A stretch of DNA of 63,445 nt from the NCBI GenBank assembly GCA_034717835.1, contig JAYELZ010000273.1, positions 1-63,445 of the forward strand, given 5' to 3'. This stretch comes from Chloroflexota bacterium (GTDB lineage: Bacteria > Chloroflexota > Anaerolineae > B4-G1 > SLSP01). The notes under the pieces are model-generated. The model made no database searches. It was not told where the DNA came from and was given only the letters and a program-made list of their open reading frames with translations. Positions 7,831-49,223 of this stretch are shown in pieces (positions within the stretch are counted from its first letter, which is position 1; each line of letters starts with the position of its first letter). The translations under genes and the position numbers were made by a program.

Positions 7831-9507
<1,677 letters not shown>

Positions 9508-9531
9508 TCAGTATACTTGTATAAACTAACG

Positions 9532-9816
9532 TTAGGCTGCCAGAACTGCCAGCAAATCATCCTCACGCAAGATCAGAACTTCATCACCAAAACTACTCTT
9601 GAATTTGGTACCAGCGTACTTGGCATAGATCACGGTATCGCCTTCCTGCAAGACATCGCTCACTACGTCCGCACCCAGCGCCAAGATCTGACCCTGTTGG
9701 GGCTTTTCTTTGGCGGTATCCGGCAGCACCAGTTTGCCGCCAGCAATGGTCATCTCTTCTTCTTCGATGGGCTTTACCACTACACGGTCACCCAAAGGAC
9801 GAATCTCTACACTCAT
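9532..9816 (-). CDS. groS: Co-chaperonin GroES
   Basis: MSVEIRPLGDRVVVKP... with GGAGG 7 nt upstream of the ATG at 9816. The track start 9864 lies inside the CIRCE operator. Confidence 0.93.
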   Translation of the reverse strand: MSVEIRPLGDRVVVKPIEEEEMTIAGGKLVLPDTAKEKPQQGQILALGADVVSDVLQEGDTVIYAKYAGTKFKSSFGDEVLILREDDLLAVLAA

Positions 9817-9857
9817 GCTCTTACCTCCATCCAATCTAAAATTGTGGTTTACGCTCA

Positions 9858-9884
9858 TTAGCACTCGCCGACTTAGAGTGCTAA
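9858..9884 (-). promoter_or_regulatory. CIRCE operator (HrcA site), promoter-proximal
   Basis: Exact consensus TTAGCACTC-N9-GAGTGCTAA. Confidence 0.9.
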
Positions 9885-9896
9885 ATGATAGTCAAC

Positions 9897-9925
9897 ATAA
9901 TAACACAAGCCTGTTTTTTTGTCAA
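9897..9925 (-). promoter_or_regulatory. Sigma-70-type groES promoter
   Basis: On the minus strand, TTGACA-17 nt-TATTAT. The -35 overlaps the arm of the upstream CIRCE. Confidence 0.6.
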
Positions 9926-10198: not shown

Positions 10199-11272
10199 TC
10201 ACGCCGGGACGTTTTCGATAATCTGCTGTACTGCGGCGACGTCCAGATCTTTCTTATCTAAGAAGGCCACCGCGCCCGCTTCCAACCCCAGCCGGTGGAA
10301 TTCACGGTCGGGATAGGCACTGATCAAGACGATACGCGCATCGGGGCAGAGAGCTTTGAGACGTCGGGTGCAACGAATGCCATCTTCGTCACCCAAAACT
10401 ACATCCACCAGCACCAAAGATGGGGAAAGCGCTTTAGCCAACCTGACAGCTTCTCCGACACTAGCTGCTTCGTAAACCACTGCTTGGGGATAGGCCCGTC
10501 CGACCATGCGTCGCAATTGAGCGCGGTAGAAATCACTATCATCCACCAATAGCAATGTGAATTGTGAGGGCAAAGCCACCGCACGGGCGGGGGACAAATG
10601 CCGGGGACTTATCTGCCGACCAGAAAACCCCATGATTTCAGGGTGCTCCAGAGCGTATGTAGCCGCTTCCAACCGGCTCTGGACATCCAGGCGCCGGTAG
10701 AGTCCGGTAAGATGATTTTCCACCGTCTTGACGCTCAACCCCAGGCGTTGCGCGATGCTCTGATTATCCAAACCCTCCTGCAGTAGCCGCAATAAATCAT
10801 GTTGACGGGGAGTGAGCGGGGAACGTCGAGGGAGCTGGACAGTATGTTGCACCAACTTATCCAAGAGAGGACTGGAAACCCAGCGCTTCCCCGCCAAAAT
10901 GCGTTGTACTGCCAATTTAAGATCGCTGAGTGGCTGGTCTTTGAGGTGATATCCATCCACGCCGAGACCTAATAATCCCTGCACATAGACATCATCATCG
11001 TAGGCGCTGATGACGAGGATGCGCATTTGAGGATAACGTTCACGGATCTGCCGAATAGCGGCCAGAGGTTCAAATTCCGGCATCTTCACATCGACAATCA
11101 AGAGGTCCGGCTGCTCAGCAGCTAGCGCGGTGCGTAACGCCGTTCCATCGTCGACCTGGCCTACAATTTCCAGTTCGGGGAGCTCTTGCAAGGCATTCAG
11201 GATACCGGCTCGCACAAGAGCATGATCATCCGCCAACAACAGACGAGTTCTATTCATAGCCTTTTTTTGCAT
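10199..11272 (-). CDS. Response regulator with REC - LuxR/NarL HTH - second REC architecture
   Basis: REC1: LLADDHALVRAG...DLLIVDVKMPEF. HTH: LTPRQHDLLRLLQEGLDNQSIAQRLGLSVKTVENHLTGLYRRL. REC2: LLLVDDSDFY...LVLVDVVLGDEDG...FLDKKDL. The start is uncertain (ATG 11272 or 11257; the track gives TTG 11323). Confidence 0.85.
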   Translation of the reverse strand: MQKKAMNRTRLLLADDHALVRAGILNALQELPELEIVGQVDDGTALRTALAAEQPDLLIVDVKMPEFEPLAAIRQIRERYPQMRILVISAYDDDVYVQGLLGLGVDGYHLKDQPLSDLKLAVQRILAGKRWVSSPLLDKLVQHTVQLPRRSPLTPRQHDLLRLLQEGLDNQSIAQRLGLSVKTVENHLTGLYRRLDVQSRLEAATYALEHPEIMGFSGRQISPRHLSPARAVALPSQFTLLLVDDSDFYRAQLRRMVGRAYPQAVVYEAASVGEAVRLAKALSPSLVLVDVVLGDEDGIRCTRRLKALCPDARIVLISAYPDREFHRLGLEAGAVAFLDKKDLDVAAVQQIIENVPA

Positions 11273-11338
11273 TATTATGACCTGAGTGATTGATTTAAGA
11301 GGTGGATGGTAGACGGCAGACAATATGTAATGAACGAG

Positions 11339-12955
11339 CTATTTATGTGCCGAAGGATAGGGGCTAGGAATCTCAATCTCCAACTCCAATCCACCGGTTG
11401 AGGATGTCCGCACGATTAAACTACCGGAGAGCAATGAAACCCGCTCGCTGATGCCCACCAGTCCAAAATGTTTCTGCTCAGTCAAGGCAGCCAAATCCAC
11501 CGGGTCACCCATCCCGTAGCCATTGTCGCTCAAGCGCACCACCAGACCGGCCACATCCGTCCGTTGCAGCGAGAGTCTCACCTGCGTCGCACTGGCATGT
11601 TTCTGGACGTTACGCAAGCCCTCTTGGACAATACGGAAAACTGAAAGCTCGATGGGTTCTGGCAAACGCCCCAAATCAGAAGCAATATCCAGTTTCACCG
11701 CGATACCGCTCCGGGTAGTCCACTGCCCTACCAGTGAGCGGATGGCTGCCGAAAGACCATGGTTGTCAATAGTGGGGGGACGTAGGTCGCTGCATACCTG
11801 GCGCAGGCTCCCTACCACTTGCCGGATACCCTGGCGGATTTGCGCCAGTTCCAAATGCTGGATCTGGGGAGCATTTTCCGCCTCTTCCAGTTGATAATTA
11901 TAGCTCAACAGATCCTGGATGATCTGATCGTGCAGCTCGCGCGCCAGCACTTTACGCTCAGCTTCCCGCTCACTGATCAAACGACGACCAGCCTCCTGCA
12001 ACGCCAAGTTCAAGCCGTCCAGCGCTTCCAGTTGATTATTTAACCGCTCAATTAGCTGACGATTGAGCGAATCCTTCTCTTCCAAACTCTGGCGCAAGGC
12101 TAGTTGATCCTGGCGCAATTTTTCGGCTTGCTGCTGGGCCCGATGGTAGTTCTCGAACGCCCAGATTACCGGCGTGACCCGGGCTTGGCGTTTGGAACCC
12201 ACAATCAACTCTACAATCTCACGGGGAGTAGTCTCAGTGGTACGCCGCAGGGCTAGTTGCTGGCCTTGATATAAGACCAGGATACGATCGGTAACGGAAA
12301 AGATGTGTTCCAGATCATCGCTACTCAAGATGACCGCGACCTGTTGAGACTTCAACGCCGCAATCCATTCCAGTAGCTTCTCCTGACGTACAAAGCTAAG
12401 GGCCTCCAGGGCATCATCCAGCAATAGCAAGCGAGAGGGACGGCAGAATGCCCGCGCCAGAGCCACCACCTGTCTCTGTTCATCGGAGAGATTAGCCGCG
12501 CATTTCCTAAAAAAATCGGGAGACATCTCGAAGGAGGCCAACAAATCGCGCGCTATCGTCAGCATCTCCCCATCTTCGGGCAACAGTCTCAGCCATCCTG
12601 GAGCACGAATCTCGCGTCCCAGGAAAACATTATGCGCCACGTCCATTTCATTAATCAACTGCGGAGCCTGTTGTACTGCGGTAATACCCAAACGTTGGGC
12701 CCGGGCCGCGCTTTTAAGCGCCACGGGATTGCCATCTAGGATAATCTCACCAGCCGAAGGTGTGTAGACGCCACCGAGCAATCGAAAGAGCGTAGATTTA
12801 CCCGCCCCTCGCTGTCCCACCACGCCTAACACTTCGCCTGACGCAAGTGCAAAATTCACATCCACTAATGCCGGCACCGCACCAAAGTAGTGAGAAAGAT
12901 GATTGACTCTAAGAAATTTCGGTTGATCAGTTTTCATAATAAGTAGAACTAGCAC
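11339..12955 (-). CDS. Fusion protein: N-terminal ABC-transporter nucleotide-binding domain + coiled coil + HisKA_3/HATPase_c histidine kinase. No transmembrane segment.
   Basis: Residues 7-255 align without gaps to the first NBD of the adjacent CUT2 ATPase (Walker A GQRGAGKST). Residues 270-330 are heptad-rich. ARELHDQIIQDLL is the HisKA_3 H-box. N-box EGLRNVQKHA, G1 DNGYGM, G2 GLVGISERV. Confidence 0.85.
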   Translation of the reverse strand: MLVLLIMKTDQPKFLRVNHLSHYFGAVPALVDVNFALASGEVLGVVGQRGAGKSTLFRLLGGVYTPSAGEIILDGNPVALKSAARAQRLGITAVQQAPQLINEMDVAHNVFLGREIRAPGWLRLLPEDGEMLTIARDLLASFEMSPDFFRKCAANLSDEQRQVVALARAFCRPSRLLLLDDALEALSFVRQEKLLEWIAALKSQQVAVILSSDDLEHIFSVTDRILVLYQGQQLALRRTTETTPREIVELIVGSKRQARVTPVIWAFENYHRAQQQAEKLRQDQLALRQSLEEKDSLNRQLIERLNNQLEALDGLNLALQEAGRRLISEREAERKVLARELHDQIIQDLLSYNYQLEEAENAPQIQHLELAQIRQGIRQVVGSLRQVCSDLRPPTIDNHGLSAAIRSLVGQWTTRSGIAVKLDIASDLGRLPEPIELSVFRIVQEGLRNVQKHASATQVRLSLQRTDVAGLVVRLSDNGYGMGDPVDLAALTEQKHFGLVGISERVSLLSGSLIVRTSSTGGLELEIEIPSPYPSAHK

Positions 12956-12967
12956 ATTTCTAAGACC

Positions 12968-13031
12968 CTATAAAAGACCGTGCAGATGCCCAATGCGAGA
13001 TCGTCAGCCGAGGGCACCTGCACGAGTTTTT
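12968..13031. terminator. Terminator/attenuator-like hairpin between the permease and NBD-kinase genes
   Basis: cgtgcagatgccc...gggcacctgcacg (13-bp stem, 1 mismatch), with T-rich tracts after it on both strands. Confidence 0.4.
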
Positions 13032-13054
13032 GAAATAGTACGAATAGCTATAAG

Positions 13055-14245
13055 CTAACCCTGCTTGCTGCTATTCCGCGTAGCGACATCAAAGGCCACG
13101 GCAGCTACGAGCACCGCCCCACGCACGACGTACTGATAAGCAATGTCAATGCCCATCAAGTTCATGCCGCTGGTGAGTGACATGTAAACCAGCGCCCCAA
13201 TCAGCGACCCCATGACCTTACCTACACCACCGGCCGCCGAGACGCCGCCGATATACGCCGCCGCGATGGCATCCAGCTCAAACAACGTGCCGGCCGTAGT
13301 GGTGGCAGATTGCAAGCGTGAAGCAAAAAGAATGCCCGATAAAGCAGAAAGCATCCCCATTGAACCAAAGACCATAAAGATAATGTTTTTCACATTGATA
13401 CCACTCAACTCGGCAGCCTCTGGATTACCTCCCACGGCGTAAACATGCCGTCCAATCACCGTTTGCGTGGTGATAAAGTGATAAATTCCCACTACCAACA
13501 ATACTACCACGACGGTCCAAGAAAGGCCATTGTATCCCGCCAGCACCCAGGTAATCAGGGCCATCAACACAGAGACAAAAACCAACTTCAGGATAAATAT
13601 ATTTTGGGGCAAGACCTCAAAATTATAACCTTGTTTCTCTTTGCGGCTACTGAAGGCACTTCTAATGAAAAAGACGATGGCCACGACACCCAACAGCAAA
13701 GTCAGTTTGTGCACCTCTGGCAAGATATTACTCAGGCCAGGAATATCGGGGATGTAACCATTGCCAATAGCATTAAATATCTCATCGTTGATAATGATCG
13801 TCCCAGTGCCCGCCGTGACCAACAGCAAAGCCCCACGATAAATCAACCAGCCAGCCAGAGAAGTCACAAAAGAGGGAATCCCCAACTGTGCCACCGGGAA
13901 AGCGGTGAGCAAGCCCGCCAGCGTCCCGAGCACCAGAGCCAACGGAATGACCACATACACGGGTAAATGCCAGAACGAGAGCGCAATCGCCGCGATCGCC
14001 CCTAGAAAGCCGGAGAGAAAGCCTACCGACAGATCGATATGTTGAATGACAATCACCAATGTCATGCCGACAGCCAATACTGCAATGTAACCCGTCTGGT
14101 TCAACAGGTTACTGATATTACGTGACGAAATAAAAATACCATCCGTGGTGATGGTGAAAATCGCCATAATTACGAACAGGGCAATATACATACCATATTC
14201 GCGGATATTTTCCTTTAAGACCTTCTGCAAGTCCCTAAAAAACAT
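13055..14245 (-). CDS. CUT2-family monosaccharide ABC transporter permease (GguB-like)
   Basis: 396 aa, about 10 hydrophobic segments, between the ATPase and regulator genes. Confidence 0.85.
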   Translation of the reverse strand: MFFRDLQKVLKENIREYGMYIALFVIMAIFTITTDGIFISSRNISNLLNQTGYIAVLAVGMTLVIVIQHIDLSVGFLSGFLGAIAAIALSFWHLPVYVVIPLALVLGTLAGLLTAFPVAQLGIPSFVTSLAGWLIYRGALLLVTAGTGTIIINDEIFNAIGNGYIPDIPGLSNILPEVHKLTLLLGVVAIVFFIRSAFSSRKEKQGYNFEVLPQNIFILKLVFVSVLMALITWVLAGYNGLSWTVVVVLLVVGIYHFITTQTVIGRHVYAVGGNPEAAELSGINVKNIIFMVFGSMGMLSALSGILFASRLQSATTTAGTLFELDAIAAAYIGGVSAAGGVGKVMGSLIGALVYMSLTSGMNLMGIDIAYQYVVRGAVLVAAVAFDVATRNSSKQG

Positions 14246-14256
14246 TTCTAACCTCC

Positions 14257-15780
14257 TCAGTAATCCGTCGCTAGACTCATGATATTTTCTTGAGTAGCTT
14301 CCGCAGCCGGCATCTCTCCAACGATTCTCCCGCCAGAAACGACGTAGATTCTATCGCTCATGCCAAGTATCTCCGGCAACTCAGATGATATCGTGATAAT
14401 ACTCATCCCTTCTTGCACTAACCTATTCATAATCGTATAAATTTCATATTTGGCGCCCACATCAATACCACGGGTGGGTTCATCCAAAATCAATATATCC
14501 GGTTTGACAAACAAGCATTTAGCCAGACTGACTTTCTGCTGATTGCCACCACTTAGATTACTCACCAGCTGTTCAATACTGGGCGTCTTGATAGTCAGAG
14601 AACGCCGATATTCATTCGCCACTTTAATCTCGGCATTGTTATCAATCCTGCCATGATGGGCAATCTCCTGCAAATTCGCCAGAGTGATATTCTGCTTCAC
14701 ATCCTGGATTAGAATCAGACCATCCCCTTTGCGATCCTCTGTGAGGTACACCAACCCCGCCTCAAGTGCATCGTGGGGATGTCCAAACTCTATTGGTTCA
14801 CCCTTTACGAATATCTCCCCGCTAATATGATAATGAGCGGCATTGCCAAACAAGCTTAATGCCAGCTCCGTACGTCCAGCTCCCATCAACCCCGCCAACC
14901 CGACGATTTCACCTTTCTTGACGTTGAAATTGATATCTTTCAGGATTTCTCGTCCCAGTCGCGGATCGTAGGCATGCCAGTTTTTGATCTCGAACGCGAC
15001 CTCTGTGGAAATTTCATGCTCTCTAGGCGGATAGATGTTATCAATTTCTCGTCCTACCATGTGCTTGATCAACGCGGGCTCGGCTACTTCACCGGCACTG
15101 GCATCCAGAGTACAAATAGTCTGTCCATCACGCAAAACAGTGACTGTATCTGCAACATCTATGATCTCTTTCAATTTATGGGAAATCAAGATGCAGGTAA
15201 CCCCTTGTTCACGCTGTTCGCGCAGCAAGCGCAATAAGTTAGCGCTATCATCTTCATTCAAAGCCGCAGTAGGCTCATCTAAAATCAAGATGCTCACATT
15301 ACGATGTAACGCTTTGGCGATTTCCACCAGTTGCTGCTGCCCTACCCCCAAATCCTTGATCTTGGTAGAAGGGTTTATGTCCAATCCGACACGCTTAAGT
15401 ATCGCCGCGGTCTGTTTGATGGTTTCGTTCCAATTAATCGCGAGCCCTTTACTAATCTCTTGACCCAAGAAGATATTCTCATAAACCGGCAATTCAGGAA
15501 TCAGCGCCAATTCCTGGTAAATGATAGCTATGCCGGCTTTTTCGCTCTCGCTAATATGCTTATATTCCTGCACTTCCTCGTGCAACAAAATATCGCCGGT
15601 GTACGATCCAAAAGCGTGTACCCCGCTCAATACTTTCATTAAGGTAGATTTCCCCGCGCCGTTCTCCCCTACCAAGCCATGAATCTCACCCTCAGCAACC
15701 GTAAAACTAACGTTGTCTAGGGCCTTCACGCCGGGGAACTCTTTAGTAATGTTCCGCATCTCCAATATGGGAGCACCCAT
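14257..15780 (-). CDS. CUT2-family sugar ABC transporter ATPase with duplicated NBD (GguA/XylG-like)
   Basis: 507 aa. GENGAGKST, LGVGQQQ, ILILDEPTAAL, ISHKL, and a second NBD with LSGGNQQK, ILILDEPTRGID. Confidence 0.93.
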   Translation of the reverse strand: MGAPILEMRNITKEFPGVKALDNVSFTVAEGEIHGLVGENGAGKSTLMKVLSGVHAFGSYTGDILLHEEVQEYKHISESEKAGIAIIYQELALIPELPVYENIFLGQEISKGLAINWNETIKQTAAILKRVGLDINPSTKIKDLGVGQQQLVEIAKALHRNVSILILDEPTAALNEDDSANLLRLLREQREQGVTCILISHKLKEIIDVADTVTVLRDGQTICTLDASAGEVAEPALIKHMVGREIDNIYPPREHEISTEVAFEIKNWHAYDPRLGREILKDINFNVKKGEIVGLAGLMGAGRTELALSLFGNAAHYHISGEIFVKGEPIEFGHPHDALEAGLVYLTEDRKGDGLILIQDVKQNITLANLQEIAHHGRIDNNAEIKVANEYRRSLTIKTPSIEQLVSNLSGGNQQKVSLAKCLFVKPDILILDEPTRGIDVGAKYEIYTIMNRLVQEGMSIITISSELPEILGMSDRIYVVSGGRIVGEMPAAEATQENIMSLATDY

Positions 15781-15896
15781 AGCGCCTCCGTTTTCTAAAA
15801 TTATACACAGTAAGCTAGCTCAACAGGGACAGTGTTGAAATTAAATCTCCACCACCCCTGCTTTTTCACCTAATTATTATTCGCCAGCTTAGAGAA

Positions 15897-18065
15897 CTAT
15901 TCAAAATCAGCAGCGTCGTAATAACCAGAATCAATCAAGACTTCTTGGACATTATCCGCATCGACTGAAACCACGGCGGATTGAATGGCCGGAACATCAG
16001 TGGCGCCGTTATCATAAGCACCTTTGGCGGTGGGTTCTGCGCCCTGAAGCAGGGCTACTGCCGCGTTGATGGCGTCTTGTACCAGCGTGCGGACGTCTTT
16101 GAAGACCGTCATAGACTGCTTGCCATCCATGATGTATTGCACAGAAGCCTTCTCCGCATCCTGACCGGTGACCAAGTAGCTCGTCACATCTTTGTCCGTC
16201 GCAAACGCATCGGCAATCGCGCGCGCCGTGCCATCGTTCGGAGCCAAGATGAAGACATCGCCCTTGTCCTCGGCTTGCGCCATCGTCAAGTTAGCCTCGG
16301 CCAAGTTCTTGGCCGTGTTGAAGTCCCAGTTGGTGGTGACTTGACCGATAATCTGCGCCTGCTCATCGCGGGTCAGCTCCGCCTTGCCCTGGAGTTCCTC
16401 AGCCGCACTGGAGTTCTTGATAACGAAGGTGCCATCGGCGATTTTGGGTTGGAGTACGCTCCACGCGCCCTGGAAGAAGATGAAGGCGTTGTTATCAGAG
16501 GCGGCACCGGCGTACAGGTAGAGCGGGTTGCCCTGCCCCTCGGCGCCATCCACCAAGTATTGGGCCTGTTGCGCGCCCACCGCGACGCTATCAAAGGTCA
16601 CGTAGTAATTGACGGCATCGGTATCACGGATCAGGCGGTCGTAGGAAATGACCTGGACGCCGGCCTCTGCGGCCGCGTTAGCGGCGGCGGCGGCCGCGGT
16701 GCCATCCTGCGGGCAGATGATCAGCACTTTGACGCCCTTGGTGAGCAACGCCTCGACATTCTCTTTTTCCTTGGCAGAAGAACCCTGGCTGAAGAGAATC
16801 TCCACATCGTAGCCCGCCGTGTCAAAAGCAGCGCGGAAACGCTCTTCATCCTGAATCCAGCGCGGTTCATCTTTCGTCGGGAGCACTACGCCGACCGCCA
16901 GTTTGCCTTCGGGGGGCGTCGCAGCACCTTCGCCTAGCCCGGTGAAGTCGTCAGCGGAATAGTAGCCAGAATCAATCAGAGCAGCTTTGACATTATCCGC
17001 ATCGACTGAAACCACCGCGGATTGAATGGCCGGAACATCGGTGGCACCGTTATTATAGGAGCCGCTGGCCTCGGGGTTCTTGCCCTCAAGCAAGGCTACC
17101 GCCGCATTGATGGCATCCTGTACCAGCGTGCGGACGTCTTTGAAGACGGTCATGGACTGCTTGCCGTCGATGATGTATTGCACAGAAGCCTTCTCTGCAT
17201 CCTGGCCGGTGACCAAGTAGCTCGTTACATCTTTATCCGCCGCAAACGCATCGGCAATCGCGCGCGCCGTGCCATCGTTCGGGGCTAGGATGAAGACATC
17301 GCCCTTGTCCTCGGCTGCCGCAGCAGTCAGGTTGGCCTCGGCCAAGTTCTTGGCCGTGTTGAAGTCCCAGTTGGTGGTGACTTGACCGATAATCTGCGCC
17401 TGCTCATCGCGGCTCAGCTCTGCCTTGCCCTGCAGTTCCTCAGCCGCACTGGAGTTCTTGATGACGAAGGTGCCATCGGCGATTTTGGGTTGGAGTACAC
17501 TCCACGCACCCTGGAAGAAGACGAAGGCGTTGTTATCAGAGGCAGCACCGGCGTACAGGTAGAGCGGGTTGCCCTGCCCCTCGGCGCCATCCACCAAGTA
17601 TTGGGCCTGTTGCGCGCCCACGGCGACGCTATCAAAGGTTACGTAGTAATCTACGGCGTCCGTGTCACGGATCAGGCGGTCGTAGGAGATGACCTTGACG
17701 CCAGCCTCAGCCGCCGCATTAGCCGCCGCCGCTGCCGCCGTGCCATCTTGTGGGCAGATGATGATTACTTCAACGTTCTTGGTGATCAGGGCCTCTACGT
17801 TCTCTTTTTCCTTGGCTGAAGAGCCTTGGCTGAAGAGAATCTCCACATCGTAGCCCGCCTCACCTAGCATCTCGCGGAAGCGCGTCTCATCCTGAATCCA
17901 GCGCGGCTCATCTTTTGTCGGGAGCACTACGCCGACCGCCAATTTCTCGGCTGGCTCGTTATCCGCAGGAGCCTCGGTGGCCTTTTCAGCTCCGCCGCAA
18001 GCAGTCAGGAGCATTGAAGCCAAAACTAGAATTGTCAAAACAGCAAACAGATTTTTCTTAAACAT
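15897..18065 (-). CDS. Sugar-binding lipoprotein made of two complete tandem ChvE-like periplasmic-binding modules
   Basis: 722 aa with lipobox LLTACGG. Residues 41-375 and 388-722 are near-identical full PBP type-I modules (KLAVGVVLPTKDEPRWIQDE...). Confidence 0.9.
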   Translation of the reverse strand: MFKKNLFAVLTILVLASMLLTACGGAEKATEAPADNEPAEKLAVGVVLPTKDEPRWIQDETRFREMLGEAGYDVEILFSQGSSAKEKENVEALITKNVEVIIICPQDGTAAAAAANAAAEAGVKVISYDRLIRDTDAVDYYVTFDSVAVGAQQAQYLVDGAEGQGNPLYLYAGAASDNNAFVFFQGAWSVLQPKIADGTFVIKNSSAAEELQGKAELSRDEQAQIIGQVTTNWDFNTAKNLAEANLTAAAAEDKGDVFILAPNDGTARAIADAFAADKDVTSYLVTGQDAEKASVQYIIDGKQSMTVFKDVRTLVQDAINAAVALLEGKNPEASGSYNNGATDVPAIQSAVVSVDADNVKAALIDSGYYSADDFTGLGEGAATPPEGKLAVGVVLPTKDEPRWIQDEERFRAAFDTAGYDVEILFSQGSSAKEKENVEALLTKGVKVLIICPQDGTAAAAAANAAAEAGVQVISYDRLIRDTDAVNYYVTFDSVAVGAQQAQYLVDGAEGQGNPLYLYAGAASDNNAFIFFQGAWSVLQPKIADGTFVIKNSSAAEELQGKAELTRDEQAQIIGQVTTNWDFNTAKNLAEANLTMAQAEDKGDVFILAPNDGTARAIADAFATDKDVTSYLVTGQDAEKASVQYIMDGKQSMTVFKDVRTLVQDAINAAVALLQGAEPTAKGAYDNGATDVPAIQSAVVSVDADNVQEVLIDSGYYDAADFE
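15900..17945 (-). repeat. In-frame tandem duplication, period 1041 nt (347 codons), inside the binding-protein gene
   Basis: Copy 15900-16904 against copy 16941-17945, roughly 90% nt identity by eye, with a 36-nt linker (GLGEGAATPPEG). Confidence 0.9.
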
Positions 18066-18258
18066 ATTTATCCTCCCTAAGGATTAGCTCATAAATGGGT
18101 AAAATCAATCGAGATTCTTCTCTACGCGGGGTTAGATCTTCTATAACTTATTTTCTAGTTTACCTCCTATTCTTCATTAGACATGTTAAATGATAGCATA
18201 GGAACAGCCCCGAATCAATCCACTTTCCCCTTCTCGAGCTAGTGTTTACCCCCACGCT

Positions 18259-18282
18259 CTATTAGGGGGAATCCCCTAATAG
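18259..18282. promoter_or_regulatory. Perfect palindrome in the divergent promoter region (candidate operator)
   Basis: CTATTAGGGG-gaat-CCCCTAATAG, about 195 nt upstream of the binding-protein gene. Confidence 0.25.
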
Positions 18283-45133: not shown

Positions 45134-45217
45134 GTTCTATTTCTCCCATCCAACATTGCTCAGCTTACCTTCCTGATCAATTCCCTCTATTCTAACTGGA
45201 GTGAGCTGAAAAACAAG

Positions 45218-46774
45218 TTACGCTACTGGCTCGGTTTGCACGCCGGCCATCAGCAAACCCAGTCGCTCCATGCTGGCTTCTTCAATGGGGAGTATCCCCA
45301 TGATGCGCCCCTCGTAAATGACGGCGATGCGATCGGCGAGCGCAAGTATCTCATCCAGGTCTTCCGAAATGAGCAAGATCGCGGCCCCAGCGTTGCGTTG
45401 TATTAAAAGTTGTTGGTGGACGTACTCGGTGGCGCCGATATCCAGGCCGCGCGTGGGCTGCGCCGCTACTACAATGCGCGGTTGGCGGGAGAGCTCGCGC
45501 GCTAGAATCAATTTTTGGATGTTGCCACCGGAGAGGTTCTGCGCCGGGGTCTCCTGAGAAGGAGTCTTGACGCTAAATCTCTTGATCAATTCCGCCGAAT
45601 GTCGTGCAATGACCGCGAAATCCAAGAAACCACGTTTAGAATAGGGCGCGAGATGATGTTCGCGCAGAATCAAGTTCTCGGCCACCGAGAACTCCGCGAT
45701 CATGCCGTCGCGCATCCGCTCTTCGGGGATGTAGGAGAGGCCGCCTTCCATAAGCTCGCGGGGGGAAGCAGCGGCGACGTTCTGCCCTTCTATCAGCACG
45801 GCCCCACCGGTCAGAGACCGCAACCCCGTGATGACTTCCGCTAACTCGCGCTGACCATTGCCGGAGACGCCGGCCAACCCGATAATCTCTCCAGCGTGAA
45901 CTTCCAAATCAATGCCGCGGAGGGCCGGCAACTCGCGGTCATTCTGGGCGCGCAGCTCGCGGAGCGCCAAGCGGACCGGCCGGGCTTTCATCAAGGGGCG
46001 TTCCGGGTTCCACTTGATCTCACGTCCCACCATCATCTGCGCCAAATCTGCTTTGGTCGCCTCACCCAACGGGCGGGAGCCGGTGACCCGTCCTCTCCGC
46101 AAGACGGTGACGCGATCACTAATTTCCACCACCTCGTGAAGTTTATGTGAGATGAAGATGATTGCATGCCCATCGTTCACCATCTGCTTCAGGATGACAA
46201 ATGTCTCCTCCACTTCCTGTGGGGTGAGCACGGCTGTAGGCTCATCCAAAATTAAGAGGGCCGCGCCGCGATAGAGGGCTTTGATTATCTCCACGCGCTG
46301 TTGCTGACCGACCGCTAGCTGCCAGACAGGGACTTCTGGATCAACCTTGAGGCCGTAGAGTTCGCCCAATTTCACGATGCGTTGGGATACCTGCTCCAAG
46401 TCAGTGAGCAGGCCGCGCGAGGAAGGCAAGCCCAGCGCCACGTTTTCGGCCACGGTGAGGGTGGGGACCAACATGAAGTGCTGGTGGATCATCCCGATGC
46501 CCAGTTTGATAGCGTCTAGAGGAGAAGTGATAGCTACTGGCTGGTCGTTGATCAGAATTTCGCCAGCATCTTGTTGGTAAAGTCCGTAGAGGATATTCAT
46601 TAAGGTGCTTTTGCCCGCGCCGTTTTCCCCTAAAAGTGCGTGGACTTCCCCGGAACGGATATCGAAGTTCACGCGGTCATTGGCTAACACGCCAGGGAAG
46701 CGTTTGACTATCTGGCGCATCTCTAGGTGGGCAATTCGCGCATGTCCTGAAGGTAACAAATCGGTTTCTTTCAT
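45218..46774 (-). CDS. ABC ATPase with duplicated NBD (nucleoside/BMP-type transporter)
   Basis: GENGAGKST, LAVGQQQRVEI, LILDEPTAVL, and a second NBD with LSGGNIQK. Confidence 0.9.
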   Translation of the reverse strand: MKETDLLPSGHARIAHLEMRQIVKRFPGVLANDRVNFDIRSGEVHALLGENGAGKSTLMNILYGLYQQDAGEILINDQPVAITSPLDAIKLGIGMIHQHFMLVPTLTVAENVALGLPSSRGLLTDLEQVSQRIVKLGELYGLKVDPEVPVWQLAVGQQQRVEIIKALYRGAALLILDEPTAVLTPQEVEETFVILKQMVNDGHAIIFISHKLHEVVEISDRVTVLRRGRVTGSRPLGEATKADLAQMMVGREIKWNPERPLMKARPVRLALRELRAQNDRELPALRGIDLEVHAGEIIGLAGVSGNGQRELAEVITGLRSLTGGAVLIEGQNVAAASPRELMEGGLSYIPEERMRDGMIAEFSVAENLILREHHLAPYSKRGFLDFAVIARHSAELIKRFSVKTPSQETPAQNLSGGNIQKLILARELSRQPRIVVAAQPTRGLDIGATEYVHQQLLIQRNAGAAILLISEDLDEILALADRIAVIYEGRIMGILPIEEASMERLGLLMAGVQTEPVA

Positions 46775-46805
46775 GTCGGTTCCTCAATCGGAGTTAAAAA
46801 TTACC

Positions 46806-46961
46806 AGTTGAAAGTTACATTACAAGTCGAAAGTCGAAAGTCAAAAGTCAAAAATATCTGTCCCTCCCCCAGTAGTCCACGTAGGGGAACTTCGCAAAAG
46901 TAGCCGCTACTTTAGTTGCCAGGCTAGCCATTGGGTCAGAGCAATTGCCCGGCTAGCCTGG
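46806..46961. repeat. Intercistronic repeat block (AGTCGAAA 8-nt words; GTAGCCGC word; 11-bp perfect IR)
   Basis: caagtcgaaagtcgaaagtcaaaagtcaaaaa. IR ccaggctagcc (46919-46929) / ggctagcctgg (46951-46961). Confidence 0.7.
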
Positions 46962-46986
46962 CGGGATACGCCAATTCTAAAAAATA

Positions 46987-47994
46987 TTACTTGCCTACAT
47001 TGACGGGGATGGCACCATCCATGATGCCCTGAATCGTCTCTTCTGCGACTCCTTTAACCTCGTCGGAGAGGCCATAAGCGGAGTTATACGCGATGAGCAA
47101 CCCTTTGTTTTCCAGCGAGAGGGCGAAAGCCTGCCCGCCCAAAGTACCCTCTTCGATTAGGTCAAATATCTGATCTAACACTACGGTCCAATCGTAGACT
47201 TGGTTGGCGACGACGACGGTGGGGGCTAGCGAGGTCTGATTGGATTGTGTCCCGAACCAAGCCACGTCGTTTTCCTCGGCGACGCCGACAGCGCCGACCA
47301 CCATCTGGGCCGTGCCGCTCAGCTGATCTGCCCCAGCGTTGACCAGGGTCTGCGCCGCTTCGGAAGCCAACGCCACATCGCTGAAGGAGCCGATCCAGTT
47401 CACGTTGACCTCAGCAGCTGGATTGGCGGCTTTGACACCGGCGATAAAGCCATCCACGTAGAGTTTAGCATCCCCGGTCTCGATAGGCCCCACCACGCCA
47501 ATCACGTTGCTCTGGGTCTGCGTTCCCGCGATGACGCCGTTGACGTACCCGCCCTGTTCGGCGCGCGCCTCGTAAGCGAAGACGTTTTCAATCCCTTGAT
47601 CGACGAAGGTGTCCACCGTGGTGCCCCAAGCAAAACTGGTCTCGGGGAAATCGGGGGCAATCTCTTGCAGCGAGCTGCCGTACTGTGAACCGTGCGCGAT
47701 TACCAGATCGTAACCCTGACTGGCGTAGTCGCGGAGGGCCGCGGCGGCATCATCGACCACAAAAGTGCCATCGGAGTAGGCGATCTCAAAGTTCTCCGCG
47801 CCGCCTCGCTCGGTTTGGATAGCGACCAACGCATCGTACATGCTCTGACTGAAGGCCAGGTCATTAATCGCACTGGGCATGACCACCGCCACGCGGAATG
47901 TTTTGTCGCCTCCGCCGGTTTCTCCACCCCCACAACCACTCAACAAAACTGCTAACAACGTCATGATACTCAAGACTGCATAGATTTTACGCAT
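46987..47994 (-). CDS. BMP-family (Med/PnrA-like) ABC substrate-binding lipoprotein
   Basis: Lipobox LLSGCGG, FRVAVVMPSAINDLAFSQS. Confidence 0.88.
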   Translation of the reverse strand: MRKIYAVLSIMTLLAVLLSGCGGGETGGGDKTFRVAVVMPSAINDLAFSQSMYDALVAIQTERGGAENFEIAYSDGTFVVDDAAAALRDYASQGYDLVIAHGSQYGSSLQEIAPDFPETSFAWGTTVDTFVDQGIENVFAYEARAEQGGYVNGVIAGTQTQSNVIGVVGPIETGDAKLYVDGFIAGVKAANPAAEVNVNWIGSFSDVALASEAAQTLVNAGADQLSGTAQMVVGAVGVAEENDVAWFGTQSNQTSLAPTVVVANQVYDWTVVLDQIFDLIEEGTLGGQAFALSLENKGLLIAYNSAYGLSDEVKGVAEETIQGIMDGAIPVNVGK

Positions 47995-48087
47995 GATTTT
48001 CTCCTCTGGTTAAATGTTGGTTACTAAAATAGAAAATACTGGCCTGGAGCAAATTTGAGGGATACACCTCCTTTGTGCTTGAAAAAA

Positions 48088-48237
48088 GAGAGCTCACCAC
48101 TGAGACACGAAGGACACTGAATAGTTAGCAATTAGCAGTTAGCGATTTGTCATAGGAACTAACCGCAATACACTACACTTCAGTTAGGATTTTCGAATCC
48201 TAGTCGGTCCTAAAATCTTCGTGCCTTTGTGATGAAA
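48088..48237. repeat. Intercistronic hairpin-type repeat (CACCACTGAGACAC module, TTAGCA words)
   Basis: 48088-48120 is about 85% identical to the reverse complement of 62985-63017. The inverted partner cttcgtgcctttgtgatg is at 48217. The ttagcaattagcagttagcg words lie between. Confidence 0.65.
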
Positions 48238-48293
48238 TACTTGCTTTCGGTAGACCCAACTAGTTTTTAGCAGGTTAATCTGCGTCCCCAAAA

Positions 48294-49223
48294 TTATTCC
48301 CGATTGAACGGTTTGGTCAGTGCGCTGGGAGTCTGGGCGCGTTGCCCGGCCAAGACCAGCGCCACGATGGTGAGCAGATAGGGCATCATCACCGCCATCT
48401 CCGAGGGGATAGGGATCCCTAGCGTCTGTACCCAGAGCTGTAAGGCGTTGACCATACTGAAGAGCAAGGCGCCAATCAAGACCCCGCCGGGTTTCCAGCC
48501 GCCAAAGTAAACCAGGGCCACCGCGATGAAGCCCAAGCCGCTGGTCAAGTTCTGTTGGAAGACGTTGAGCAGTGCGATGGAGAGTGAGGCTCCGGCCACG
48601 CCAGAGAGGGCGCCTCCCAGAGTGACGGTGAAGTAGCGCACGCGGCTCACGCTGACGCCCAACGAGTCCGCCGCGTCTGGATTTTCGCCCACCGCCCTGA
48701 TTTTCAATCCCAGGGTGGTCTTGTTTAGCAAGAACCAGGTGAGCGGCACCAGGGCAAACGCGATATAGACGAGGATATTGTGCTGGAAGAGGATCCTGCC
48801 CACCACGGGCAGCTCGCTCAACCAGGGGAAATGTAGCGGAGTGAAGCCACTGACGGTCTCCACCCGCCCCAATAACTTCTGGAAGAGCAAATCGCTCAAG
48901 CCCAGACCGAAGAGGTAGAAGCCGATGCCGCTGATGCCCTGCTTGGCCTGCAAGTTGATGCTCACGAAAGCCATCAGCAGTCCCATCAGCGCGCCCACCA
49001 AACCCGCTGCCAATAATGCCAACCACAAATTGCCGGTAGTGAGCGCTACGTAGAACCCTGCGAAGGCCCCCAATAACATCTGTCCTTCCACGCCCAAGTT
49101 GAGCACGCCGCTGCGCTGGCTGATCGTCTCGCCCAGTCCAGCATAGAGATAGGGTGTCGCCAAGCGAATGCCAGAAGCCAAAATGCCGATAATTACCCGC
49201 GCCGAGAAGAGATCTCTGATCAT
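48294..49223 (-). CDS. ABC transporter permease (nucleoside/BMP type)
   Basis: 309 aa polytopic, with a 4-nt overlap with the upstream permease gene. Confidence 0.88.
   Translation of the reverse strand: MIRDLFSARVIIGILASGIRLATPYLYAGLGETISQRSGVLNLGVEGQMLLGAFAGFYVALTTGNLWLALLAAGLVGALMGLLMAFVSINLQAKQGISGIGFYLFGLGLSDLLFQKLLGRVETVSGFTPLHFPWLSELPVVGRILFQHNILVYIAFALVPLTWFLLNKTTLGLKIRAVGENPDAADSLGVSVSRVRYFTVTLGGALSGVAGASLSIALLNVFQQNLTSGLGFIAVALVYFGGWKPGGVLIGALLFSMVNALQLWVQTLGIPIPSEMAVMMPYLLTIVALVLAGQRAQTPSALTKPFNRE

Follow-up and report, generated by a model that had tools for sequence, protein, structure and literature searches.

A degenerate ABC nucleotide-binding domain fused to a soluble histidine kinase and genetically linked to a CUT2-type sugar transporter in Chloroflexota

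Introduction

What does the nucleotide-binding domain (NBD) of an ATP-binding cassette (ABC) importer do at the front of a soluble histidine kinase? The question is raised by a locus in a 63,445-nucleotide contig from a Chloroflexota bacterium (JAYELZ010000273.1; "the window" below refers to this whole stretch of DNA), in which a sugar-binding lipoprotein, a two-NBD ATPase and a permease are followed by an NBD-kinase fusion and a response regulator. An earlier note on this DNA, made from its sequence, had described five genes on the same strand, and our check of open reading frames (ORFs) finds all five on the minus strand between 10,199 and 18,065, at the coordinates first reported. Here, we find that the fusion is a real and soluble protein, conserved in Chloroflexota, that is genetically tied to a CUT2 transporter, a regulator and a palindromic DNA element. 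We propose that the locus is a self-regulating sugar-uptake module whose kinase takes its input through a catalytically retired NBD, a reading to which we give slightly better than an even chance.

Results

Domain structure of the NBD-kinase

The protein at the centre of the locus divides as follows:

11339..12955, minus strand: NBD-kinase, with Pfam domains ABC_tran at residues 32-183, HisKA_3 at 333-394 and HATPase_c at 437-531
12197..12916, minus strand: degenerate ABC NBD of the kinase, residues ~8-247 of the 532-aa form
11963..12196, minus strand: linker (TPVIWAFENY) and long helix, from the NBD to the phospho-accepting helix
11339..11959, minus strand: HisKA_3 and HATPase_c, with H-box ELHDQ and intact N, G1 and G2 boxes

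ABC_tran, HisKA_3 and HATPase_c had been predicted in this frame by the earlier note, and a profile scan of 11339..12955 scores all three: ABC_tran with E 6.5e-25 and 88.8 bits against a cut-off of 25, HisKA_3 with 40.9 bits (cut-off 24) and HATPase_c with 27.3 bits (cut-off 26.4). NCBIfam models of CUT2 ATPases cover residues ~13-259 (YtfR, E 3e-45), and the C-terminal half matches the NCBIfam models of MctS and UhpB (UhpB, E 1.9e-28). An AlphaFold2 model built on 25 family members reaches a pLDDT of ~90 over residues 10-240 and shows long helices at 248-287 and 292-353 and, after them, the phospho-acceptor and catalytic domains. In Foldseek, the N-terminal domain matches the NBDs of LivG (LivG-like MJ1267), LptB, CbiO, MetN and MalK at E ~1e-17, with a target-normalised TM-score of up to 0.88. 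Pfam, NCBIfam, AlphaFold2 and Foldseek thus all bear out the assignment of the N-terminal region as an ABC NBD. The helical segment at 11963..12196 is presumed, from the model, to form a coiled coil. In the family alignment, H336, N443, D471, G473, G475, G492 and G495 of the kinase are invariant, and the TPVIWAFENY linker is invariant or nearly so across clades.

The protein had been described as soluble, 538 residues long and devoid of a membrane or periplasmic sensor. Its solubility and lack of such a sensor hold: no membrane segment is found in the kinase, the highest 19-residue Kyte-Doolittle mean being 1.48, and neither a signal peptide nor an extracytoplasmic part was detected in it. The length does not hold, as the start is most likely the ATG at 12937, which gives 532 residues and agrees with the database entry and with homologs. 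Nor does the NBD align without gaps to the neighbouring ATPase: it is 32% identical to the N-terminal half of this GguA-like protein, with several short gaps, and 24% identical to its C-terminal half.

A conserved family in Chloroflexota

The same uninterrupted three-domain ORF appears in more than 120 full-length clusters at 63-83% identity when 5.8 billion clustered proteins are searched, and a metagenome scan with an alignment spanning only the NBD/kinase junction, where TPVIWAFENY is highly conserved, finds at least 309 loci. The source assemblies come from NCBI, JGI, ENA and Logan. That an assembly or frame artefact merged an ATPase fragment with a kinase gene, a concern of the earlier note, is refuted by this recurrence in hundreds of independent assemblies; we found no point in its favour and leave it virtually no probability.

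The family is abundant in Chloroflexota, with a narrow diversity. When 1.84 billion representatives (clusters at 50% identity) were searched exhaustively with HMMER, the best 150 matches included only a few full-length clusters (68%, 46%, 43%, 38% and 31% identity) and fragments, with ordinary CUT2 ATPases of ~500 aa making up most of the remainder. A search of genome contigs with the single kinase protein gave one true relative (L001), the other four matches being ordinary kinases or ATPases. The organism names attached to the relatives, which are those given by the sources to metagenome-assembled genomes, are Anaerolineae, Anaerolineales, Thermoflexia and Chloroflexi only. Their database names are generic ("ATP-binding cassette domain-containing protein", "signal transduction histidine kinase"), the architecture has no entry in the PDB, and full-text literature searches returned no paper on such a fusion, in agreement with the earlier note, which knew of no characterised example.

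Three further sequences join a similar NBD to other output domains. P0128 (549 aa) carries an NBD and TPVxWA linker fused to TPR_MalT and GerE and is possibly a one-component regulator, reminiscent of MalK-MalT; P0230 (765 aa) has an NBD and TPVxWA linker fused to GAF, HisKA and HATPase_c; and P0227 (539 aa) joins a fully canonical NBD to a HisKA_3 kinase. All three are represented by one sequence each, on contigs of at most 2.5 kb (loci including L014 and L096), for which chimeric assembly is possible, and we do not rely on them. A profile search with the NBD C-terminus and linker returned 18 short fragments only and is uninformative on other output domains.

Fate of the NBD motifs

An alignment of 71 NBDs of the family to the N-terminal halves of 111 CUT2 ATPases allowed us to track the positions that are at least 70% conserved in the ATPases. 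The family retains G41 and G44-L50 of Walker A, along with G56, G63 and G84; the Q-loop Gln90, followed by L94, V100, N103, L106 and G107 (NxFLGxE; in CUT2 ATPases typically ENIFLGRE); Asp174 of Walker B; and the MVG linker with which the domain ends. In ABC importers generally, the Q-loop and the helix that follows it contact the permease. Retention of Walker A and of the Walker B Asp predicts that nucleotide is still bound.

The catalytic residues have met a different fate. Glu175, present in all 111 ATPases, is Asp in 85% of the family and otherwise N, A, E or H; the H-loop His207, also present in every ATPase, is Asp in 96%; P176, T177 and E184 in the D-loop region are changed; and signature position 153, Gly in the ATPases, is Glu in 97% (LSxEQ). 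In the NBD of the window kinase, Walker A (GQRGAGKST) and the Q-loop Gln persist, the signature reads LSDEQ, Walker B reads LLLLDD with Asp in place of the catalytic Glu, and Asp stands in place of the H-loop His. With catalytic Glu and H-loop His gone and the signature and D-loop altered, hydrolysis is predicted to be lost, so that a complex built on this domain would sense rather than transport. Walker A (GxxGxGK[ST]) is found in all clades except one, that of L012, P0125 and P0130, which has VDHESQAIFE or AERDETGIST in its place and still keeps an ATPase-permease-regulator-kinase locus. Our reading of these patterns is that hydrolysis is no longer under selection and that nucleotide binding is usually, not always, kept. 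The fusion point falls exactly where NBD2 starts in CUT2 ATPases, and the protein resembles an ATPase of the RbsA/GguA type in which a coiled coil and a kinase have taken the place of the second NBD.

Strong purifying selection on Walker A (GxxGxGK[ST]) and the Walker B Asp in most clades would also suit a cytoplasmic nucleotide or energy sensor, in which ATP-dependent NBD dimerisation, an established behaviour of ABC domains, switches the kinase without permease contact and the transporter is only the target. The earlier note had raised ATP sensing as its alternative, and in its pure form this idea is weakened by the clade that lacks a P-loop and keeps the whole locus. Moreover, almost the entire family has Glu in place of the signature Gly, the residue in contact with the gamma-phosphate, and the D-loop is changed as well; both features speak against a canonical ATP sandwich. 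Pure nucleotide sensing also leaves unexplained both the retention of the permease-facing Q-loop and NxFLGxE segment and the existence, described below, of units that pair the kinase with a second binding protein and permease and have no ATPase gene. We consider it unlikely.

Linkage to a CUT2 transporter

The kinase almost always adjoins a ChvE/GguAB-type transporter, in at least eight gene orders and at identities down to 36-42%. Neighbourhoods were taken for 11 proteins, and the five window proteins were mapped onto the loci by tblastn. In the orders below, SBP stands for the binding protein, PERM for the permease, HK for the kinase and RR for the regulator, and > and < mark which way a gene is transcribed:

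Type A, SBP-ATPase-PERM-HK-RR: the window, L001, L009, L016, L019, L026, L027, L036 and L037
Type B, HK> <RR SBP> ATPase> PERM>: L006, L008, L010 and many others
Type C, <RR HK> SBP> ATPase> PERM>: most soil-derived loci
Type D, SBP-ATPase-PERM-HK, RR not adjacent: L011, L017 and L022-25
Type E, ATPase-PERM-RR-HK: L012 and L013, at 36% identity
Type F, second permease directly upstream of HK: L084, L087, L049, L051/L054 and L064
Type G, HK> <RR <PERM <ATPase <SBP: L082 and L093
Type H, HK> SBP> <RR: L048 and L079
Unlettered, <RR SBP> single-NBD ATPase> PERM> HK>: L097, at ~40% identity

Divergent and convergent orders are among those conserved, grouping the kinases by sequence gives clades that coincide with these arrangements, and at L011 and L017 the transporter adjoins the kinase although the regulator does not. 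A linkage that outlasts so much reshuffling and divergence argues strongly for a functional unit.

At three loci, namely L008 (type B), L092 (in the second-permease clade described below) and L097 (in the ~40% clade), the transporter ATPase has a single NBD. All three proteins are fully canonical (LSGGQ, DEPT, ISH), and we read their presence in place of GguA as ordinary transporter variation. They matter to the proposal that the kinase acts as a throttle on the transporter, its dead NBD competing with GguA for the permease or pairing with an ATPase NBD, and its kinase output being secondary. A dead NBD that keeps its permease-contact residues is a natural competitive inhibitor, and the single-NBD ATPases could in principle heterodimerise with it; being canonical, however, they need no partner, and pairing of the kinase NBD with a half-ATPase is unsupported. 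The strict conservation of kinase catalytic motifs, partner regulator and operator further indicates that signalling output is itself under selection, and we regard a throttle as quite unlikely.

A clade with a second permease

In the clade whose Walker A reads GRRG[AS]GKS, a divergent second CUT2 permease, 24-39% identical to GguB, is encoded directly before the kinase, in most cases along with a second lipoprotein binding protein. The second permease and kinase genes overlap or are separated by 5-17 nt, and no ATPase gene lies between them except at L092. With SBP2 and PERM2 denoting the second copies, the arrangements are:

L084: ATPase-PERM1-SBP2-PERM2-HK
L087: SBP2-PERM2-HK
L049: PERM2-HK, with the binding-protein gene beyond the contig end
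L051/L054 and L064: SBP1-ATPase-PERM1-SBP2-PERM2-HK

The SBP2/PERM2 pairs are of two subtypes, one XylF/GguB-like and the other RbsB/RbsC-like. These SBP2/PERM2/HK units are full ABC-importer gene sets in which the kinase is the only NBD-bearing gene. Their NBDs share the dead-site pattern of the rest of the family, from which it follows that the complex would sense and not transport; such sensing would be comparable to the use of UhpC or XylFII as sensor paralogues. Within the window itself, no orphan permease was found.

Regulator, candidate operator and transcription signals

The regulator gene and the DNA signals of the operon are:

10199..11272, minus strand: REC-GerE-REC response regulator of 357 aa (ORF 10199..11323), assigned with Pfam and NCBIfam, GerE being the helix-turn-helix (HTH) domain
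18263..18278: palindrome TAGGGGGAATCCCCTA, consensus TAGGGG-N4-CCCCTA, followed by GGGG-rich boxes toward the promoter
18190..18218, minus strand: candidate sigma-70-like promoter, TTGATT, 17 nt, TATCAT, with an upstream TG; a pattern match from a consensus scan
12975..13024, minus strand: 13-bp hairpin followed by GGUCUUUUAU (U-run), in the 117 nt that separate the permease gene from the kinase gene

A LuxR-type REC-HTH-REC regulator had been reported here, and the REC, GerE and REC assignments agree; its start is probably at 11272. The protein is of NarL/LuxR type with an additional C-terminal receiver after the DNA-binding domain, and 50 distinct homologs conserve the phospho-acceptor pockets (DD, D, S/T, K) of both receivers. 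The second receiver is a candidate phosphate sink or second input. A REC-GerE-REC gene adjoins the kinase in the window and in most related loci.

The palindrome came to light when the DNA in front of the binding-protein gene was aligned for 45 loci; it lies upstream of the transporter operon in nearly all loci. The copy at 18263-18278 is the only exact match in the window and sits just upstream of the promoter-like TTGATT-17-TATCAT element. In 913 kb of related loci, there are 26 exact copies of the palindrome and a further 25 with one mismatch, against a chance expectation, by our estimate, of ~0.05 exact matches. Each copy is found 170-570 nt ahead of the binding-protein start; on contigs that lack this start, it is in intergenic DNA beside the kinase or regulator gene. 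GC-rich inverted repeats are typical of NarL-family regulators such as DosR, and the palindrome is presumed to be the binding site of the NarL/LuxR-type regulator, which would make the five-gene operon autoregulated.

The candidate operon promoter is followed by a leader of ~120 nt (18080-18185), which holds a conserved AGGAGGT box (in the window GAATAGGAGGTAAAC, at about 18164-18178), well ahead of the actual ribosome-binding site. Clade C loci (for example L066, L069 and L081) have a strong hairpin resembling a terminator, AGCGAAGC...GCTTCGCTTTTT, immediately before this box and ~100-130 nt before the binding-protein start codon. An Rfam search of the locus found no RNA family, only two chance-level matches. 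Between the permease and kinase genes, the minus-strand segment 12938-13057 folds at -38.5 kcal/mol (z = -3.66), with none of 200 shuffles as stable; the long loop of its hairpin explains why the consensus scan missed it. This hairpin may be a partial or attenuating terminator that lowers expression of the regulatory genes.

The extra conserved receiver gives some weight to the suggestion that the NBD is a dimerisation or scaffold domain, or a binder of a cytoplasmic ligand such as the imported sugar or a metabolite, with the signal entering elsewhere, for example at the second receiver. ABC NBDs do serve outside transport, as PhnK/PhnL does on C-P lyase, which is among the Foldseek matches. 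Neither the survival of linkage to CUT2 permease genes through rearrangement nor the second-permease clade is explained by a scaffold, however, and we know of no precedent for sugar binding by an NBD. Of the alternatives that take the fusion as real, this is the least probable in our judgement.

Transporter genes and flanking region

The transporter part of the locus, a second transporter in the window and the genes downstream of the regulator are:

15897..18065, minus strand: binding lipoprotein, 722 aa, lipobox LLTAC, two Peripla_BP_4 domains (Pfam)
14257..15780, minus strand: GguA-like CUT2 ATPase, 507 aa, two fused NBDs, two ABC_tran domains (Pfam)
13055..14245, minus strand: GguB-like permease, 396 aa, BPD_transp_2, EAA-type loop GGNPEAAELSGINV
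~45194-48770, minus strand: second CUT2-type sugar transporter, two-NBD ATPase and permease
7831-9864, minus strand: GroES/GroEL-like genes (110 aa and 553 aa)

The binding protein had been called ChvE-like. The type stands, with 524.9 bits to the ChvE NCBIfam model (cut-off 460), a score summed over two domains; the protein is, however, a tandem of two ChvE-like domains whose halves are 91% identical in the window. Tandem binding proteins are also present at L006, L008, L009, L011, L023, L028, L060 and L095. The two halves are 85-100% identical within a genome and orthologous halves 75-90% identical between genomes, which points to concerted evolution or repeated recent duplication. Close relatives can have a single-domain version (for example L024 as against L023), possibly through assembly collapse of the repeat.

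GguA is the best-matching NCBIfam model for the ATPase at 743.8 bits, below its cut-off of 810, and GguB is the best for the permease at 397.4 bits, below its cut-off of 450. NBD1 of the ATPase is canonical, and NBD2 combines a degenerate Walker A (GAGRTE) with a canonical signature motif. On three contigs from at least two projects (L026, positions 372-2948; L037; and L027), the GguA-like ATPase is an 858-aa ORF whose NBD1 and NBD2 are separated by an in-frame insert of ~335 residues with Peripla_BP-type sequence. This insert is 57-66% identical to the window binding protein, finds its match in the region where the two domains of the tandem protein join, and could be either a cytoplasmic sugar-binding insert in an ABC ATPase or the product of rearrangement.

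The second transporter of the window lies 30 kb away; its ATPase is 38% identical to GguA, and no NBD-kinase adjoins it. The GroES/GroEL-like genes directly follow the regulator, the 553-aa protein ending in a GGM-repeat tail, and are preceded by the best promoter match of the scanned region (TTGACA-17-TATTAT, 9897-9925, 11/12). At L009, a Cpn10 gene likewise follows the regulator.

Discussion

A model for transporter-coupled sensing

In the module that we propose, the kinase would dimerise through its HisKA_3 helices and present two NBDs, which would dock, like those of the transporter ATPase, on the coupling helices of the permease dimer. In the window the docking partner would be GguB, shared with GguA; in one clade it would be the dedicated second permease with its own second binding protein. 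The kinase NBD would bind nucleotide without hydrolysing it. Docking of the sugar-loaded binding protein, or the transport cycle, would alter the separation of the NBDs, and this movement would pass along the ~85-residue helical linker to the phospho-accepting His. The phosphorylated regulator would then bind TAGGGG-N4-CCCCTA, together with the GGGG boxes next to it, a short way upstream of the -35 element, and activate the five-gene operon, in positive autoregulation. In known importers, MalK and MetN among them, both NBDs have their C-termini facing away from the membrane, and, since the kinase NBD matches these domains in Foldseek, the docking geometry is plausible. That the kinase reads out the transporter through its NBD was the central proposal of the earlier note, and it gains support from the CUT2 linkage, the retained Q-loop and NxFLGxE segment, and the second-permease units.

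Several points weigh against this model. Contact between the kinase NBD and the permease, binding of the regulator to the palindrome, and activation as opposed to repression are steps that we infer from sequence. The window and most clades have a complete transporter ATPase, so that the kinase must compete for a single permease or bind elsewhere. The change of the signature Gly to Glu, together with those in the D-loop, could prevent the closed NBD sandwich on which the relay depends. Conservation of Walker A in most clades would fit nucleotide sensing equally well. In the second-permease clade, the upstream GguA may in principle energise both permeases, which would make SBP2/PERM2 an ordinary second transporter.

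A more specific form of the proposal is that binding protein, CUT2 permease dimer and dead NBD-kinase together make up an importer-derived transmembrane receptor, which does not transport and converts sugar binding into phosphorylation. From the seat of the transporter's ATPase, a soluble kinase would sense the cell exterior, in some lineages through dedicated binding-protein and permease paralogues. We hold this version tentatively, at somewhat under an even chance.

Comparison with known systems

Elements of such an arrangement are known from other systems. In UhpABC, the transporter paralogue UhpC is the sensor for the HisKA_3 kinase UhpB and the NarL-type regulator UhpA, which induce the transporter proper. 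As described above, the UhpB model matches the C-terminal, kinase part of the window protein; UhpC, however, is a member of the MFS and UhpB a membrane protein without an NBD. In PstSCAB-PhoU-PhoR and MalK-MalT, the state of an importer NBD (PstB or MalK) is read by a regulator; there, a working ATPase is read through PhoU or through sequestration of MalT, whereas the NBD of the window kinase is dead and covalently joined to the kinase. The N-terminal NBDs of CUT2 ATPases (RbsA, XylG, GguA and YtfR) are its best matches and share the ENIFLGRE-like segment and the MVG linker; it differs from them in the replaced catalytic Glu, H-loop His, signature Gly and D-loop residues, and in the coiled coil and kinase that stand in place of NBD2.

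The flux-sensing BceAB-BceS modules of Firmicutes join an ABC transporter to a histidine kinase in a single sensory unit, whose two-component system induces the transporter operon (PMC8534201). As in the window, the kinase has no ligand-binding domain of its own. BceS, however, is a separate membrane protein (PMC8534201), as the earlier note had also said of Bce-type kinases; it has two helices and touches the FtsX-type permease BceB in the membrane, whereas the window kinase is soluble, carries an NBD and has no hydrophobic segment, its permease is of the BPD_transp_2 type, and its transporter is a binding-protein-dependent CUT2 importer and not a peptide-resistance transporter. In Ks-Amt5, an ammonium transporter domain that no longer transports efficiently is fused to a kinase as its sensor (PMC8534201). 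There, too, a transporter component is fused to a kinase as sensor, but the fused part is a membrane-integral translocation domain, and in the window protein it is the cytoplasmic energising subunit, so that the signal would have to pass through a separate permease.

Kinases that depend on binding proteins (LuxPQ, XylFII-LytS, TorTS, HptAS and ChvE-VirA) are touched by these proteins in an extracytoplasmic domain, and in the XylFII-LytS-YesN type a Peripla_BP_4 protein, often a paralogue of a transport binding protein, feeds the control of a CUT2 transporter such as xylFGH (PMC8050422). The sensor-side second binding protein of our second-permease clade resembles those of XylFII-LytS-YesN, ChvE-VirA and LuxP-LuxQ. 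The kinase there is a membrane protein, whereas the window kinase has no membrane or extracytoplasmic part, and the ABC permease would therefore carry the signal across the membrane. Among the systems covered by two reviews (PMC8534201, PMC8050422), none uses an NBD as the input domain of a kinase. The window system would work as a transporter-coupled sensor, yet it lacks the defining features of each sensor family with which we compare it. To our knowledge, in all described transporter co-sensors the kinase is a membrane protein or is fused to a transporter membrane domain.

Implications

What is new here is that the energising subunit of an ABC importer has been turned into the input domain of a kinase. 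The second-permease clade, the clade that lacks Walker A and the conserved operator all provide handles for experiments. If the NBD docks on the permease, the family would represent a new route of transmembrane signalling, in which the NBD motions driven by a binding protein are usable as an information channel, and its members would be natural, soluble and modular reporters of the conformational state of ABC importers. This family is abundant in Anaerolineae of sediments, soils, digesters and hot springs, hosts that are hard to culture.

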